From the NCBI RefSeq assembly GCF_013122565.1, contig NZ_CP053258.1: 64,000 nt of DNA; one strand, written 5' to 3'. This DNA comes from Escherichia coli. GTDB taxonomy: Bacteria; Pseudomonadota; Gammaproteobacteria; Enterobacterales; Enterobacteriaceae. The stretch's first letter is position 1. Each line of letters starts with the position of its first letter. The notes below the pieces were generated by a model. It did no database searches. It saw only the letters and a list, made by a program, of their open reading frames with translations, and was not told where the DNA came from. Both the position numbers and the translations under genes were made by a program. Positions 14,863 through 25,504 of the stretch are shown here, piece by piece.

Positions 14863-16338
14863 ATGTCCAGTCAATATTTACGTATTTTTCAACAGCCGCG
14901 TTCAGCCATATTGCTGATCCTGGGTTTTGCTTCCGGGCTACCACTCGCCCTGACATCCGGCACCTTACAGGCCTGGATGACGGTCGAGAATATCGATCTC
15001 AAAACCATTGGTTTCTTCTCTCTGGTAGGCCAGGCTTACGTTTTTAAATTCCTCTGGTCACCGCTGATGGACCGCTACACGCCCCCATTTTTTGGGCGGC
15101 GGCGCGGTTGGCTGCTCGCCACGCAAATCCTGTTATTAGTCGCCATTGCGGCGATGGGTTTTCTCGAACCAGGCACCCAACTCCGCTGGATGGCGGCGCT
15201 GGCGGTGGTGATCGCTTTTTGCTCTGCCTCCCAGGATATTGTCTTCGATGCGTGGAAAACCGATGTGCTCCCGGCAGAAGAACGTGGTGCGGGCGCGGCA
15301 ATCAGCGTGCTGGGTTACCGTTTAGGGATGCTGGTTTCCGGCGGCCTAGCCCTGTGGCTGGCAGATAAATGGCTGGGCTGGCAGGGCATGTACTGGTTGA
15401 TGGCGGCGCTGTTGATCCCCTGTATTATCGCGACGTTGCTTGCACCAGAACCGACCGACACCATTCCTGTGCCAAAAACGCTGGAACAAGCGGTTGTTGC
15501 ACCTCTGCGAGATTTCTTTGGTCGCAATAATGCCTGGCTTATTTTGCTTCTTATCGTGCTGTATAAGCTGGGCGACGCATTCGCCATGAGCCTGACAACC
15601 ACGTTTTTGATTCGCGGCGTCGGGTTTGATGCGGGTGAAGTAGGCGTGGTTAACAAAACGCTTGGCTTACTGGCGACCATTGTTGGCGCATTGTACGGTG
15701 GGATTTTGATGCAGCGCCTGTCGCTGTTCCGTGCACTGCTGATTTTCGGCATTTTACAAGGTGCATCTAACGCCGGTTACTGGCTACTGTCGATTACTGA
15801 TAAGCATCTCTACAGCATGGGCGCAGCCGTCTTTTTCGAAAATCTCTGTGGCGGGATGGGTACTTCAGCCTTTGTCGCGCTGTTAATGACGCTGTGTAAT
15901 AAGTCATTTTCCGCTACTCAATTTGCCCTGCTCTCAGCGCTTTCCGCTGTAGGGCGAGTTTATGTCGGCCCCGTGGCGGGTTGGTTTGTTGAAGCACACG
16001 GCTGGTCGACATTCTATCTGTTCTCCGTCGCCGCTGCCGTACCGGGGCTTATTTTGCTGCTGGTTTGCCGCCAGACGCTTGAATATACACGAGTAAATGA
16101 CAACTTTATCTCCCGTACCGAATATCCGGCAGGTTATGCCTTTGCCATGTGGACACTGGCGGCGGGCGTCAGCCTGTTGGCCGTGTGGTTACTGCTATTG
16201 ACGATGGACGCGCTGGATTTGACGCACTTCTCTTTCCTGCCGGCTCTGCTGGAAGTCGGGGTTTTAATCGCCCTTTCTGGCGTCGTGCTTGGTGGTTTGC
16301 TGGATTATCTGGCGCTACGAAAAACGCATCTGACGTAA
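14863..16338 (+). CDS. ampG: Muropeptide permease AmpG (MFS)
   Basis: 491 aa polytopic membrane protein matching AmpG. Confidence 0.95.
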   Translation: MSSQYLRIFQQPRSAILLILGFASGLPLALTSGTLQAWMTVENIDLKTIGFFSLVGQAYVFKFLWSPLMDRYTPPFFGRRRGWLLATQILLLVAIAAMGFLEPGTQLRWMAALAVVIAFCSASQDIVFDAWKTDVLPAEERGAGAAISVLGYRLGMLVSGGLALWLADKWLGWQGMYWLMAALLIPCIIATLLAPEPTDTIPVPKTLEQAVVAPLRDFFGRNNAWLILLLIVLYKLGDAFAMSLTTTFLIRGVGFDAGEVGVVNKTLGLLATIVGALYGGILMQRLSLFRALLIFGILQGASNAGYWLLSITDKHLYSMGAAVFFENLCGGMGTSAFVALLMTLCNKSFSATQFALLSALSAVGRVYVGPVAGWFVEAHGWSTFYLFSVAAAVPGLILLLVCRQTLEYTRVNDNFISRTEYPAGYAFAMWTLAAGVSLLAVWLLLLTMDALDLTHFSFLPALLEVGVLIALSGVVLGGLLDYLALRKTHLT

Positions 16339-16797
16339 TCTGTAAATATTATTTAGCCGTAGTAATCACTCGCCGTAATTATTACGGCTAAATAAACATC
16401 AGCATCGCTTATTAATATTTGTTCTTTTGTGCGGCTTAGCATTTGGAAATTATTGACGCCAATTATAAATTCTATTTTTCTTACACGATTCAGCTAATGA
16501 ATCTTTATTTTCTCACCACCCAGTTGTCACTTTAATGATAATTATTTGTTAAATAATTGTTTTATTTTATATTGGTTATACCAATTGCCCGCCAAAACGC
16601 CTTCTGCACTACCCTTTCGTTATAACGCCCTTTTGCAACAGCTTCTTAAAATCAACTTGATATGTTTTGCAACATATGTGACCTGATAGCCAAATCCAAG
16701 TAACAGGAATTTAATCATGTTTACAGTAATGTAACCTTCCCGTAAAATGCCCACACACTTTAAACGCCACCAGATCCCGTGGAATTGAGGTCGTTAA
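16339..16797 (+). promoter_or_regulatory. AT-rich cyoABCDE promoter/regulatory region, including ampG terminator hairpin near 16349-16393
   Basis: 460-bp AT-rich intergenic region upstream of cyoA; near-perfect inverted repeat ttagccgtagtaat/attattacggctaa just after the ampG stop. Confidence 0.5.
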
Positions 16798-17745
<948 letters not shown>

Positions 17746-20702: not shown

Positions 20703-21593
20703 ATGATGTTTAAGCAATACCTGCAAGTAACGAAACCAGGCATCATCTTTGGCAACCTGATCTCGGTGATTGGGGGATTCCTACTGGCCTCAAAGGGCAG
20801 CATTGATTATCCCCTGTTTATCTACACGCTGGTTGGGGTGTCACTGGTTGTGGCGTCGGGTTGTGTGTTTAACAACTACATCGACAGGGATATCGACAGA
20901 AAGATGGAAAGGACGAAGAATCGGGTGCTGGTTAAAGGCCTGATCTCTCCTGCTGTCTCGCTGGTGTACGCCACCTTGCTGGGTATTGCTGGCTTTATGC
21001 TGCTGTGGTTTGGCGCGAATCCGCTGGCCTGCTGGCTGGGGGTGATGGGCTTTGTGGTTTATGTCGGTGTTTATAGCCTGTACATGAAACGCCACTCGGT
21101 CTACGGCACATTGATTGGTTCGCTCTCAGGCGCTGCGCCGCCGGTGATTGGCTACTGTGCGGTAACCGGCGAGTTCGATAGCGGCGCAGCGATCCTGCTG
21201 GCTATCTTCAGCCTGTGGCAGATGCCTCACTCCTATGCCATCGCCATTTTCCGCTTTAAGGATTACCAGGCGGCAAACATTCCGGTACTGCCGGTGGTAA
21301 AAGGCATTTCGGTGGCGAAGAATCACATCACGCTGTATATCATCGCCTTTGCCGTTGCCACGCTGATGCTCTCTCTTGGCGGTTACGCTGGGTATAAATA
21401 TCTGGTGGTCGCCGCGGCGGTGAGCGTCTGGTGGTTAGGTATGGCCCTGCGCGGTTATAAAGTTGCTGATGATCGAATCTGGGCGCGCAAGCTGTTCGGC
21501 TTCTCTATCATCGCCATCACTGCCCTCTCGGTGATGATGTCCGTTGATTTTATGGTGCCGGACTCGCATACGCTGCTGGCTGCTGTGTGGTAA
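20703..21593 (+). CDS. cyoE: Protoheme IX farnesyltransferase (heme O synthase)
   Basis: 296-aa product from [22 protein letters not shown] track start is 15 codons upstream. Confidence 0.95.
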
Positions 21594-21608
21594 CACAACC
21601 TCTCTATT

Positions 21609-21636
21609 AAAAAGGTGCTACGGCACCTTTTTTATT
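21609..21636 (+). terminator. Rho-independent terminator of the cyo operon
   Basis: aaaaAGGTGCtacgGCACCTtttttatt: GC stem, 4-nt loop, T-run. Confidence 0.7.
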
Positions 21637-21646
21637 GTCTGAGATC

Positions 21647-21724
21647 AGAGATACGGCTAATAACCGTATCTCTTGACAGAGTGAGCAGATGCACATAAAT
21701 TAATCATACGGTTGATAGCCGTAT
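21647..21724 (+). promoter_or_regulatory. Promoter with two ATACGG-N7-CCGTAT palindromes, candidate operators of the antitoxin-toxin operon
   Basis: Palindrome 1 at 21647-21673 (agagATACGGctaataaCCGTATctct), TTGACA -35 at 21673-21678, TAAATT -10-like at 21696-21701, palindrome 2 at 21706-21724 (ATACGGttgatagCCGTAT). Confidence 0.55.
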
Positions 21725-21777
21725 TATGTATGAGATCGACTCCCTACGATTTCATTCAGTTAATCAAAGAGGTCACA

Positions 21778-22089
21778 ATGCCTGGAAAAACAGCCACTCT
21801 ACCCGATGTCGATAAAACGCTGAAAAATGCGCGGGTTGAACTCAAAACCAGTCCCGACGCCAAAAACAGACTTCGTGAAGCTGCGCAAGCCGTTGGGTTA
21901 GATTTAAGCGCCTTTATTTTGAGCGCTGCTATGGAACGCGCCGAAAGCGTGCTTGATAACCAACGTCGCCGTGAGCTTTCGAATCAAAGCTGGGAACTGA
22001 TGAACCAACTCATCGCCGAACCTGCTCAACCGACGCTCGCACTCAAGGCGTTAATGAAAAGGAAAAACAGCGATGGTCGACAAGCATGA
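21778..22089 (+). CDS. DUF1778 (RHH-fold) antitoxin of a GNAT-toxin type II TA module (TacA/AtaR-like)
   Basis: About 103 aa from MPGKTATLPD with AAGAGG RBS 7 nt upstream; motif LSAFILSAAMERAESVL typical of DUF1778 antitoxins; 17-nt overlap with the downstream toxin; absent from this junction in K-12. Confidence 0.75.
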   Translation: MPGKTATLPDVDKTLKNARVELKTSPDAKNRLREAAQAVGLDLSAFILSAAMERAESVLDNQRRRELSNQSWELMNQLIAEPAQPTLALKALMKRKNSDGRQA

Positions 22090-22615
22090 AGAGATTACTC
22101 TGCCCATAGTCCTCTCCTGTAATTATCAGTCTGATATTACTTATCCTGGGCAAAAACAGTTTGATTGCGGTAACCCTGTTATCGATAAATTTGTACGCAC
22201 ATCGCTAAAGAAAAGTGTGCGTAATAGCGACTGTGCGGCTAAAGCACTTATTGACAGACAAAGTGGTGAACTGATTGGCATCTGTACTTTTACGGCATAT
22301 TCGCTGGAAAAACAACGCGTTTCTGGCGTCCTTCAGGGTTCACAGCCTTCAGAGATTGGTGTTGTCAGATTAGTCATGTTGGGGGTGGCGCGGAAGTATC
22401 AAAAGCGGGGCTTTGGTCAGGACCTACTATGTGATTTTTTTGAACATGTAAAAATAATTCACCAGGCATTACCAATTAAAGGGGTTTATCTTGATGCTGA
22501 CCCTGCCGCCATTAACTTTTATGCTCGTCTCGGCTTTGTTCAGCTTTCAGCGACACCAAATGCTTTTGGTGCTGTACCTATGTTTTTGGCGATTCAGCAT
22601 ATTCTCGCGGCTTAG
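22073..22615 (+). CDS. GNAT-family acetyltransferase toxin (TacT/AtaT/ItaT-like, probable aminoacyl-tRNA acetylating)
   Basis: 180 aa; acetyl-CoA-binding motif VRLVMLGVARKYQKRGFGQDLL and C-terminal FYARLGF; operonic with the DUF1778 antitoxin. Confidence 0.75.
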   Translation: MVDKHEEITLPIVLSCNYQSDITYPGQKQFDCGNPVIDKFVRTSLKKSVRNSDCAAKALIDRQSGELIGICTFTAYSLEKQRVSGVLQGSQPSEIGVVRLVMLGVARKYQKRGFGQDLLCDFFEHVKIIHQALPIKGVYLDADPAAINFYARLGFVQLSATPNAFGAVPMFLAIQHILAA

Positions 22616-22629
22616 ATTATTATCGCCAC

Positions 22630-22668
22630 CCGCCAGGGCAAGTCTTGCCTCAGCCGGGGGCTGAGTAG
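22630..22668. terminator. Hairpin between the convergent toxin and Sel1-repeat genes, putative bidirectional terminator
   Basis: CTCAGCCgggGGCTGAG inverted repeat at 22649-22665. Confidence 0.45.
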
Positions 22669-22670
22669 CG

Positions 22671-23606
22671 TTACCACTTTTGTTCAATTGCCCCCGCTTT
22701 CAGCAACTCCACATCCTTGCCGTTAATGGTTGCCGTTGCGGCAACGATTGTGGTCCTTACAGTTGCACAAGATTTTCGCTCAAATTCCGGTTTATAAAGA
22801 ATTAGAGACGAATTACTGGTAAATGAATCAAATATGTAATCAGTAAAGCTAATATTCAGCCGGTTTAAACCGAAAGGCGCGAAGCCAACCGTTTGGTTAA
22901 TCTCTTTACCGGATGGGCTACGAATGCTGAATGTCACGCGAAGATTGGCCACTTCGCCTAATTTATTGGTGGTGACGAAGAGGCTATCCATGCAGGAAAA
23001 ACCTTTATCTAAAAAATTATCCCGCATCCCAGAACGGGTAACCGTGATCACGGGTAATGTATCGTCAACCGTTTTTCTGTCAATCATGTCTTTTCGACAT
23101 GTAGCCAGAAAGTCTTCCGGACCACCATAAATGTGGACACCTTTATCAAGATATTCCTTCGCTTTCTTACAATCTACCTCAACATACTGACCATTGGCGT
23201 ACATCATGCCCAACCTGGACCATGCTAAATTCACACCGTATTGCGCGGCCTGATTAAATAGTGCATACGCTTTGGCATAATCCACCCGCACCAGCTCACC
23301 GTCGTAGTAGATACTCCCCAGCGCTAACGGAGCTTCTCTGTCACCGTGTTTAGCGGCTAACTCGAACCATTTAATCGCTTCCTGAACATCAGGTTTGGTA
23401 TCATAACGAGGCTGATAATATTCCCAGCCTAACAGGCTCTGCGCGTCGACATCTCCCAATTCAGCCATTTTATGCAGTGTATTTATAACATCGGGCGCAG
23501 GTTGACCACCATATATGCTGTCATACAATTCATGAGCTTTCTCGCTTGCCACCACGCCTGGTGAAACTATTAGCATTAAAGAAAATAATATTCTTTTAGT
23601 TAACAT
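22671..23606 (-). CDS. Secreted Sel1-repeat (TPR-like) protein with uncharacterised beta-rich C-terminal domain
   Basis: Likely start at internal Met giving MLTKRILFSLMLIVSPGVVA signal peptide; about three Sel1 repeats (LGWEYY, LGSIYYDG, LGMMYANG); AT-rich; absent from this junction in K-12. Confidence 0.7.
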   Translation of the reverse strand: MLTKRILFSLMLIVSPGVVASEKAHELYDSIYGGQPAPDVINTLHKMAELGDVDAQSLLGWEYYQPRYDTKPDVQEAIKWFELAAKHGDREAPLALGSIYYDGELVRVDYAKAYALFNQAAQYGVNLAWSRLGMMYANGQYVEVDCKKAKEYLDKGVHIYGGPEDFLATCRKDMIDRKTVDDTLPVITVTRSGMRDNFLDKGFSCMDSLFVTTNKLGEVANLRVTFSIRSPSGKEINQTVGFAPFGLNRLNISFTDYIFDSFTSNSSLILYKPEFERKSCATVRTTIVAATATINGKDVELLKAGAIEQKW

Positions 23607-24012
23607 GTATACCTTTATGTCCTCACTGTCATATATTTCCATAATAATTAACCACCAAGCATCCATTTAATGAATAAATACAGTGCCATAAATGCCCAAG
23701 TAATAAGCACACATTTAGCCTGAAACATTATCATCCATGTCACCAAATCGTTTATTTAGTAAGATAAAACTAGCATATTCGTAAGATAAAAAATGCACAT
23801 GGTAATCAAGAAATGATATTATTATTTTTTTGATGTAAAACTATTTAGCTTTAAAATTCATTTTTTCAACATATAGAGCATTCATTTTATGAATGCAAAA
23901 AACATACCTGACACACAAATTATTCTCCTCTGTAATATTTTCTCATTAACACTCTGTTTACCCAACATGCGCTCCGCACTACACTATGTGGGCATTTTTT
24001 TAAGAGGTGGTA

Positions 24013-25377
24013 ATGAACGATTATAAAATGACACCAGGTGAGCGGCGCGCGACCTGGGGTTTAGGAACCGTTTTCTCGTTGCGCATGCTGGGCATGTTTA
24101 TGGTTCTGCCGGTTCTGACCACGTACGGCATGGCTCTGCAAGGTGCCAGCGAAGCATTAATCGGTATTGCCATTGGTATTTATGGTCTGACTCAGGCCGT
24201 TTTTCAGATTCCGTTTGGCCTGCTTTCCGACCGCATTGGTCGCAAACCATTAATTGTCGGTGGGCTGGCGGTGTTTGCCGCCGGTAGCGTTATCGCTGCG
24301 CTTTCTGACTCCATCTGGGGAATTATTCTGGGCCGGGCGCTACAAGGCTCCGGTGCGATTGCCGCTGCCGTTATGGCGCTGCTTTCCGATCTCACGCGCG
24401 AACAAAACCGCACCAAAGCGATGGCGTTTATCGGCGTGAGCTTTGGCATTACCTTCGCCATTGCGATGGTGCTTGGCCCAATCATCACTCACAAACTTGG
24501 GCTGCACGCGCTGTTCTGGATGATCGCTATTCTGGCAACGACCGGCATTGCATTGACCATTTGGGTTGTGCCCAACAGTAGCACTCACGTACTTAATCGT
24601 GAGTCCGGAATGGTGAAAGGCAGTTTCAGTAAAGTACTGGCGGAACCGCGGCTGCTGAAACTCAACTTTGGCATTATGTGTCTGCACATGCTTCTGATGT
24701 CTACGTTTGTTGCCCTGCCCGGACAGCTGGCTGATGCGGGGTTCCCGGCGGCTGAACACTGGAAGGTCTACCTGGCAACGATGCTAATCGCCTTTGGCTC
24801 GGTCGTGCCTTTCATAATCTACGCTGAAGTTAAGCGCAAAATGAAGCAAGTCTTTGTCTTCTGCGTCGGGTTGATCGTGGTTGCGGAAATTGTGTTGTGG
24901 AACGCACAAACGCAGTTCTGGCAACTGGTAGTCGGCGTGCAGCTTTTCTTTGTGGCGTTTAATTTGATGGAAGCCCTTCTGCCCTCACTTATCAGTAAAG
25001 AGTCGCCAGCAGGTTACAAAGGTACGGCGATGGGTGTTTACTCCACCAGCCAGTTTCTTGGCGTGGCGATTGGCGGTTCGCTGGGCGGCTGGATTGACGG
25101 CATGTTTGACGGTCAGGGTGTATTTCTCGCTGGCGCAATGCTGGCCGCAGTGTGGCTGGCAGTCGCCAGTACCATGAAAGAACCGCCGTATGTCAGCAGC
25201 TTACGCATTGAAATCCCTGCGGACATTGCCGCAAACGAAGCGTTAAAAGTACGTTTGCTGGAAACTGAAGGCGTCAAAGAAGTGTTGATTGCAGAAGAAG
25301 AACATTCAGCTTATGTGAAAATCGACAGCAAAGTGACGAATCGCTTTGAGGTTGAACAGGCAATTCGTCAGGCATAA
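24013..25377 (+). CDS. yajR: MFS transporter YajR
   Basis: 454-aa product from MNDYKMTPGERRATWGLGTVFSL; AAGAGG RBS; ORF track start at 24007 is an upstream GTG. Confidence 0.92.
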   Translation: MNDYKMTPGERRATWGLGTVFSLRMLGMFMVLPVLTTYGMALQGASEALIGIAIGIYGLTQAVFQIPFGLLSDRIGRKPLIVGGLAVFAAGSVIAALSDSIWGIILGRALQGSGAIAAAVMALLSDLTREQNRTKAMAFIGVSFGITFAIAMVLGPIITHKLGLHALFWMIAILATTGIALTIWVVPNSSTHVLNRESGMVKGSFSKVLAEPRLLKLNFGIMCLHMLLMSTFVALPGQLADAGFPAAEHWKVYLATMLIAFGSVVPFIIYAEVKRKMKQVFVFCVGLIVVAEIVLWNAQTQFWQLVVGVQLFFVAFNLMEALLPSLISKESPAGYKGTAMGVYSTSQFLGVAIGGSLGGWIDGMFDGQGVFLAGAMLAAVWLAVASTMKEPPYVSSLRIEIPADIAANEALKVRLLETEGVKEVLIAEEEHSAYVKIDSKVTNRFEVEQAIRQA

Positions 25378-25392
25378 AAAACGCGGCGAATT

Positions 25393-25486
25393 GCCTGCTG
25401 CGCTACGCTTACCAGGCCTACAAAGTTCTTGAGTTACAAACCGTTGTAGGCCGAATTAGCTGTTCATGCTGCATTCGGCATGAACA
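25393..25486. repeat. REP-like elements and hairpin between yajR and yajQ
   Basis: gcctgctgcgctacgcttaccaggcctac resembles REP consensus; 9-bp stem tgttcatgc/gcatgaaca at 25461-25486. Confidence 0.5.
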
Positions 25487-25504
25487 AAACGCACATAGTC
25501 GCGA

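Follow-up and report, generated by a model that had tools for sequence, protein, structure and literature searches.

The AT-rich spacer between a Sel1-repeat gene and yajR in Escherichia coli: probably shared regulatory DNA of two origins, containing a direct repeat and a palindrome

What do a direct repeat and a palindrome mean when they are found in a short AT-rich spacer between two divergent genes? Such a spacer separates a Sel1-repeat gene from yajR in E. coli, and the initial annotation suggested that its motifs could be regulator binding sites for either gene. We analyzed this question within a window of 64 kb (64,000 nucleotides of contig NZ_CP053258.1, the whole stretch of DNA under study). 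The start of the Sel1/TPR gene was placed at the ATG at 23606, as RefSeq has it in near-identical genomes, rather than at position 23666 of the longer open reading frame. With this start and the yajR start at 24013 the true spacer is 23607-24012. Its GC content is 30%, against 50.6% for the window. Taken over 300 bp, the GC content in the spacer is about 0.26-0.30, which belongs to the lowest 0.6% of 300-bp windows and makes the spacer the second most AT-rich 300-bp stretch of the 64 kb. The Sel1 gene on the minus strand, whose protein has a signal-peptide-like N-terminus, and yajR on the plus strand flank it with no frame-conserved open reading frame in between. The description of the region as an AT-rich spacer of divergent genes is thus borne out, and the spacer must carry the promoters of both genes. 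A search of Rfam over 21000-25500 gave no match at E ≤1. Intrinsic curvature by phased A-tracts was rejected, as the Fourier power at periods of 10-11 bp was not significant. Other AT-rich stretches of the window lie at 16256-16832, 33487-34739, 34445-35353 and 48876-50201, and the lowest 300-bp GC values outside the spacer are 0.243 near 34691, 0.303 near 49783 and 0.313 near 16376. The features of the locus are collected in Table 1.

Table 1. Features of the cyoE-yajR region, in window coordinates
Feature	Position	Strand	Description or basis
Intrinsic terminator of cyoE (cyo operon)	21606-21635	+	inverted repeat, then T-run
Islet-specific DNA, ~2.3 kb	21638-23933	none	absent from K-12-type genomes; itaRT, Sel1 gene and most of the spacer
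itaR	21778-22089	+	Pfam TacA1
itaT	22073-22615	+	Pfam GNAT; full-length match to PDB 7BYY, E=1.6e-117
Sel1/TPR gene	22671-23606	-	Pfam Sel1; start as in RefSeq relatives
Sel1-yajR spacer	23607-24012	none	406 bp, AT-rich, between divergent genes
Putative junction from loss of the first Sel1 gene (499 aa)	23620-23643, approximate	-	ends of alignments
Best-conserved islet-specific block	23648-23746	-	conservation profile; open 32-codon hydrophobic frame
Degenerate second dyad, GCATCCAT-TTA-ATGAATAA	23659-23677	none	219 bp from the palindrome
Imperfect 22-nt tandem duplication	23756-23799	+	head-to-tail, 17/22 identical; core is the two GTAAGATAAAA
Direct repeat GTAAGATAAAA, copies 1 and 2	23759-23769 and 23781-23791		exact 11-mers, start-to-start 22 bp
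Palindrome, GCATTCAT-TTT-ATGAATGC	23878-23896		exact; 8-bp arms, 3-nt centre
yajR promoter block, predicted	23934-24012	+	95% conserved across Escherichia alleles
Candidate yajR promoter: -35 TTTACC, 17-nt spacer, -10 TACACT	23957-62 and 23980-85	+	conservation and consensus
Shine-Dalgarno GAGG	24004-07	+	within the yajR promoter block
yajR, MFS transporter with YAM domain	24013-25377	+	Pfam MFS_1 and YajR_YAM; RefSeq of relatives

The genes of the locus follow each other in the order cyoE, itaR, itaT, Sel1/TPR gene (minus strand), yajR. According to BLAST, the islet is present in 1,367-1,369 of the 5,426 complete E. coli genomes, and about 4,053 genomes, including K-12, O157:H7 and ST131, have a cyoE-yajR spacer of 148 bp. 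On the left side homology to K-12 stops just past the T-run of the cyoE terminator, at about 21638. On the right side it resumes at about 23934, with ~82% identity over the matched stretch, and the flanking genes are 97-98% identical. Because homology to K-12 is absent between these two points, both motifs lie in islet-specific DNA. The alignment with the region upstream of yajR in K-12, which the initial annotation had proposed as a check, therefore gave a plain answer: the repeat and the palindrome are both islet-derived, and the K-12-type genomes have neither. An origin from a mobile element was rejected, since the plasmid matches were megabase records resembling mislabelled chromosomes and the sole phage match covered 52 bp. 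The islet is chromosomal and absent from true plasmids and phages.

ItaRT is described in the available text of Wilcox et al. 2018 (PMC6125619) as a GNAT toxin-antitoxin module of E. coli HS and BL21(DE3). The itaRT genes of these strains belong to the same islet as the one analyzed here, which occupies the cyoE-yajR position in the BL21 lineage and in many other genomes. The same text characterises the promoter upstream of itaR; yajR, cyoE and Sel1 are not mentioned in it, and the Sel1-yajR spacer is not covered. Repression of the module's own promoter by ItaR-ItaT is demonstrated there, in passages that define no sites (PMC6125619). In the window, two palindromes lie upstream of itaR at a distance of 55 bp from each other, AGAGATACGG-N7-CCGTATCTCT at 21647-73 and ATACGG-N7-CCGTAT at 21706-24. 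The palindromes of this region (21647-21727) are likely operators for ItaR-ItaT autorepression. Their pattern, ATACGG-N7-CCGTAT occurring twice, is unrelated to the repeats and the palindrome of the spacer.

The gap between cyoE and yajR is a variable locus across Escherichia, the genus to which homologues of the Sel1 protein are almost confined. For example, reading from yajR to cyoE, the strain E4694, the E. coli-labelled genome CP057686 and a contig of SRR8835206 have Sel1 genes for 499 and 311 aa followed by itaT and itaR, and Escherichia sp. E4930 has the same two Sel1 genes without itaRT. A metagenomic relative (60% protein identity) carries Sel1-478, Sel1-308 and an itaR-like gene. In E. 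albertii, Sel1-311 is accompanied by an unrelated gene for 325 aa without a Pfam match. Two further loci differ again, L028 with an IclR-type regulator and two genes for 145 aa, L029 with one gene for 322 aa. The larger Sel1 paralogue (478-499 aa) was seen directly upstream of the 311-aa gene in loci of other Escherichia lineages (L026, L027, L030 and L031, 1491-2990) and of the metagenomic relative (L024, 1542-2978). It is missing in E. coli, E. albertii and MOD1-EC7003.

Where does the spacer come from? Window positions 24060 down to 23644 align at 76% with the spacer between yajR and Sel1-499 in E4694, E4930 and others, and positions 23606 down to 23560 align with the start of the second gene, Sel1-311. 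Homology to the DNA upstream of Sel1-499 ends near 23644, and homology to the ribosome-binding region of Sel1-311 resumes near 23620. From these alignments we infer that the spacer is the promoter and leader of an ancestral operon whose first gene was lost in E. coli. A deletion explains this more parsimoniously than an insertion would, given that two genes are present in the most distant relative too. After this loss the old upstream DNA of the operon would have come to adjoin the remaining Sel1 gene. A divergent allele of the spacer (72% identity), found in AST85 and 18 other E. coli genomes, resembles the E4694 type. The Sel1 gene next to it has an internal stop and is annotated as a pseudogene, and in STEFF_1 the Sel1 gene is frameshifted; decay of the gene appears to be under way in some lineages.

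We consider it fairly probable that the spacer is ordinary shared regulatory DNA composed of two parts of different origin. The part next to yajR, ~80 bp at ~23934-24012, would be a conserved yajR promoter, of which every E. coli has a diverged version. The remaining ~330 bp (23607-23933) would be islet DNA that formerly served as promoter and leader of the two-gene Sel1 operon.

A Term-seq 3' end in K-12 maps to the cyoE hairpin, 107 nt upstream of yajR (PMC7815308 supplement). It shows a working terminator there, and so yajR must have its own promoter. This 3' end of cyoE is the only documented transcript end; no mapped 5' end was found for yajR or the Sel1 gene, nor a transcription start site for yajR in the supplements that we searched. 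On the plus strand TTTACC-17-TACACT is the sole candidate present in all eight alleles scanned. Neither the hexamers nor the distance between them varies among the Escherichia alleles, K-12 and the distant metagenomic relative L024, and the bases of the promoter spacer differ in K-12. To judge from its sequence, this is likely the yajR core promoter, which would place the yajR transcription start near 23992 with a leader of about 20 nt. Relative to this inferred start, the palindrome is centred near -105 and the repeats lie near -200 to -235. Both are upstream of the predicted core promoter, and ~75% of E. coli use the promoter without either of them. On the Sel1 side the minus-strand predictions differ between the alleles scanned, and no candidate is conserved across them. 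A simple scan counted 7 promoter-like pairs in the spacer against 3.1 expected, and an excess of such pairs is usual for AT-rich DNA.

Some details of the yajR-proximal DNA deserve mention. The K-12 sequence (L001 1763-1842) is ~18-25% different from 23934-24012, compared with 2-3% in the genes on either side. E. albertii, the cryptic clades and the distant relative have the islet-type sequence, and since it is shared so widely, the K-12 type is the odd one out. NEBExpress, of the BL21 lineage, has a tandem duplication of 9-10 bp around CTGTAATAT at ~23925-23935, just upstream of the promoter block, which is absent from the other genomes sampled.

The second part of the spacer contains the motifs, and both are exactly as they had been described (Table 1). 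The 11-mer GTAAGATAAAA has no further copy on either strand of the window; two matches with one mismatch occur elsewhere in it, which is close to chance. The two 11-mers form the core of a longer imperfect duplication with the units TTAGTAAGATAAAACTAGCATA (23756-23777) and TTCGTAAGATAAAAAATGCACA (23778-23799). How unusual are such structures in DNA of this composition? We shuffled the spacer 2,000 times with its dinucleotides preserved. Direct repeats of this size (exact, 11 bp or longer, within 60 bp) turned up in 2.0% of the shuffles, perfect inverted repeats with arms of 8 bp or more in 13.5%, and the two together in 0.15%. The whole window contains four direct repeats of this kind and about 22 distinct hairpins comparable to the palindrome. 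The direct repeat is mildly unusual, and the palindrome is not unusual.

The comparison of alleles shows how the repeat became perfect. In the common E. coli alleles, of which three were sampled (210205630, NEBExpress and ecoli019), copy 1 reads GTGAGATAAAA and the repeat matches at 10/11 positions. The 61-bp segment with both copies is identical in 17 of 1,350 genomes, and the perfect 11/11 repeat is a minority allele. The imperfect tandem duplication of 22 bp is probably old and has its best-preserved core in the two 11-mers, which one G-to-A change in the lineage of the source strain would have made identical. Across the Escherichia alleles only the GATAAAA core of copy 1 persists, with a conservation score of 1.0. 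Most alleles have GATAAAA in copy 2 as well; E. albertii has GGTAAAA there, and AST85 has AATAAAA. In nearly all alleles the GATAAAA cores stay 21-22 bp apart while the intervening DNA diverges, and the cores may be under some constraint.

The palindrome is likewise variable. Its arms match fully in the common E. coli alleles sampled, in E. albertii and in MOD1-EC7003, and one arm is broken in each of the strains 2018-05-2CC and VCSW7. It is degenerate in the alleles of AST85, E4694 and E4930; the E4694-type alleles, those with the two-gene operon, have 4-5 contiguous pairs left. In the divergent allele of 19 E. coli genomes the site reads GTATTAAT-GGC-AAGAATAC. One change is symmetric and two-sided, C:G to T:A at position 2 in the AST85/E4694 lineage, so that the tally is four disruptive events and one compensatory. 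The palindrome is thus a dyad of uneven quality, perfect in some alleles and degenerate in others. The second dyad (Table 1) is the sole other match to the palindrome with at most three mismatches in 64 kb, where 0.41 would be expected. Its first two bases are window-specific SNPs, on which the match partly depends, and in E4694-type alleles the pairing of the two dyad sites is lost.

Conservation was scored on five representatives of Escherichia lineages, and the motifs were ranked against windows of equal length in the spacer. The islet-specific spacer averages 0.71 and the yajR-proximal block 0.95. Copy 1 scored 0.75, copy 2 0.57 and the palindrome 0.78; at least as conserved as these were 44%, 88% and 33% of the equal-length windows, respectively. 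Neither repeat copy stands above the non-coding background that flanks it, and the same is true of the palindrome. The best-conserved islet-specific blocks are 23667-23726 and 23752-23769, the latter including the core of copy 1. The comparison of related strains, by which the initial annotation had proposed to judge the motifs, goes largely against them: the full motifs are mostly unconserved. The GATAAAA cores with their spacing are kept in nearly all alleles. The suggestion that the motifs are regulator sites is left without support, given that the full motifs do not exceed background, that the perfect repeat is a minority allele and that yajR does without them in ~75% of E. coli. Most likely the repeats and the palindrome are mutational by-products in low-complexity AT-rich DNA and not dedicated operators.

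What other explanations of the motifs can be weighed against this one? Tandem-site operators of AraC-family or response-regulator proteins have direct repeats about two helical turns apart. The repeats of the spacer, 21-22 bp apart, share this geometry, but they differ from such operators in having no known cognate regulator or matching consensus and in that the full repeat is not conserved above background. One could suppose that a specific regulator encoded elsewhere controls the Sel1 gene, yajR or both, with the GATAAAA repeats on one face of the helix binding a tandem activator or repressor in the AraC or response-regulator style, the dyad or dyads binding a dimer, and the two dyads, 219 bp apart, perhaps allowing looping. 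The rarity of the repeat in the shuffles (2%), the preservation of cores and spacing in most alleles while the intervening bases change, the presence of a related dyad elsewhere in the spacer (expectation 0.41 per 64 kb), and the one symmetric two-sided change of the palindrome all speak for sites of this kind. We nevertheless regard them as unlikely. Conservation of the full motifs is at or below the spacer background, E. albertii and AST85 carry changes in copy 2 (GGTAAAA and AATAAAA, respectively), the palindrome has suffered two independent single-arm breaks within E. coli and lost two inner pairs in the E4694-type alleles, and the match of the second dyad owes part of its quality to window-specific SNPs. 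The only linked regulator gene is itaR, whose operator-like palindromes are different and lie upstream of itaR itself; no E. coli factor consensus among those compared fits; and yajR works without the motifs in 75% of E. coli. The more elaborate proposal that the GATAAAA repeats and the dyads AT(C/T)CATTT(A/T)ATGAAT form one operator set, through which an unlinked regulator co-controls the secreted Sel1-repeat protein and YajR, possibly by looping, is very unlikely. Particular sites were also compared by eye with consensus sequences. Those of Fur, FNR, CRP, ArgR, IHF, RcsAB and PhoP gave nothing convincing, for LysR-type T-N11-A the generic pattern alone matches, and a sigma-54 site at TGGCAC (23683-88, minus strand) has no -12 GC.

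The conserved block at 23648-23746 could also be read as coding DNA. A short hydrophobic peptide of 26-32 residues, for the membrane or as a leader, would then be specified by the minus strand, with the repeats as part of its promoter. The frame is indeed open in the main E. coli allele, in E. albertii and in four E4694-type alleles, its stop stands at the same position in three spellings (TAA, TGA, TAG), most substitutions exchange one hydrophobic residue for another, and the E4694-type alleles have GGAGG 8 nt before the ATG. However, pN/pS is 0.7-1.3, no better than in two other frames, the position of the ATG is not conserved, and the frame is interrupted by a nonsense codon in MOD1-EC7003 and a frameshift in AST85. 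No Pfam or NCBIfam family matches the peptide, a collection of 15 billion proteins never has it called as a protein, and no homologous peptide exists at the more distant L024 locus. We find this explanation quite improbable, and the 32-codon frame is probably not a gene. The palindrome, for its part, could be thought to act as an RNA hairpin, either in the leader of a longer yajR transcript that would start at the promoter-like TTGATG-16-TAAAAT (23830-23857), or as a weak minus-strand terminator or insulator towards Sel1. In agreement with such a role, the hairpin has a folding energy of -8.7 kcal/mol on one strand and -8.4 kcal/mol on the other (z about -3.3 relative to shuffles), a terminator scan flags it on the minus strand, and a strong plus-strand promoter-like site lies just upstream in the main, E. 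albertii and VCSW7 alleles. But the z-score merely restates the palindromy; the stem is AT-rich, weak and without a proper U-tract, pairing is lost in E4694-type alleles and broken in two E. coli lineages, TTGATG-16-TAAAAT is absent from the E4694-type alleles, and Rfam has no match. The pair changes are mostly disruptive, and we consider an RNA hairpin role of the palindrome highly improbable. Finally, the palindrome lies within 20-40 bp of the right boundary of the islet, where homology to the yajR region of K-12 and of distant relatives ends (~23914-23934), and might be taken for a scar left when the islet was inserted or deleted, or for the recognition site used then. Against this, no matching repeat is present at the left junction, the islet has neither direct nor inverted flanking repeats and does not occur on plasmids or phages, and the same boundary is found at loci with quite different cargo. 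Local alignment of the 30 junction-proximal nt of K-12 with the palindrome region did no better than shuffles (p = 0.29). Either role has, in our estimate, almost no probability.

Three related candidates were rejected directly. A 45-aa open reading frame at 23889-24026 on the plus strand is broken by an A-run whose length varies between genomes. A structured leader RNA in the 23648-23746 block received -7.9 kcal/mol from RNAalifold with a covariation term of -0.8, without covariation and without an Rfam match. The idea that K-12 retains half of the palindrome as a deletion scar failed with the alignment just mentioned (p = 0.29).

The AT content of the spacer leads to one more question, that of silencing. 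H-NS silences AT-rich intergenic regions which were horizontally acquired (xenogeneic silencing). The initial annotation called the spacer a likely target, and judged by base composition only, silencing by H-NS is plausible: GC is 0.26-0.30 in the spacer against 0.506 in the window, and the islet occurs in ~25% of genomes. The AT-rich islet DNA would be expected to hold the Sel1 promoter among many promoter-like sequences. It would also be expected to be coated by H-NS/StpA, so that Sel1 would be expressed at a low level and spurious transcription would be kept away from the promoter region of yajR. The spacer resembles H-NS-silenced regions in being a strain-variable islet of ~27-30% GC in a genome of 50% GC and in having more promoter-like hexamer pairs than shuffles (7 vs 3.1). 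It is unlike them in that its A-tracts are not helically phased and in that it contains no close match to TCGATAAATT, which we take to be the high-affinity nucleation consensus of H-NS; no match with at most two mismatches was found in the spacer. It is also short, at 406 bp, compared with typical H-NS filaments. The sole exact match to TCGATAAATT in the 64-kb window is inside itaT, at 22182-22191. Our literature search on the locus returned no ChIP or expression data and nothing relevant on yajR with H-NS or on cyoE, yajR and Sel1.

Regions like this spacer are well known, and it is an ordinary example of them. Its motifs exist, but as sharpenings particular to a lineage in AT-rich DNA of low complexity, and they are of little importance alone. 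Conservation places the probable yajR promoter in a part of the spacer separate from them. A modestly useful by-product is the view of the cyoE-yajR gap as a variable locus which pairs the studied ItaRT module with a Sel1 operon, the latter apparently without its first gene in the E. coli copy. For studies of itaRT or yajR expression in BL21, HS or phylogroup B1 it matters that the adjacent spacer differs sharply from that of K-12. Elsewhere in the window, the only exact direct repeats that reach 11 bp and lie no more than 60 bp apart are CAGATTTATGA twice in tandem at 57523-57544, TACAAATGCGAATT twice with 15-bp spacing at 34268-34296 and GCATGGACATGA twice with 54-bp spacing at 17657-17722.
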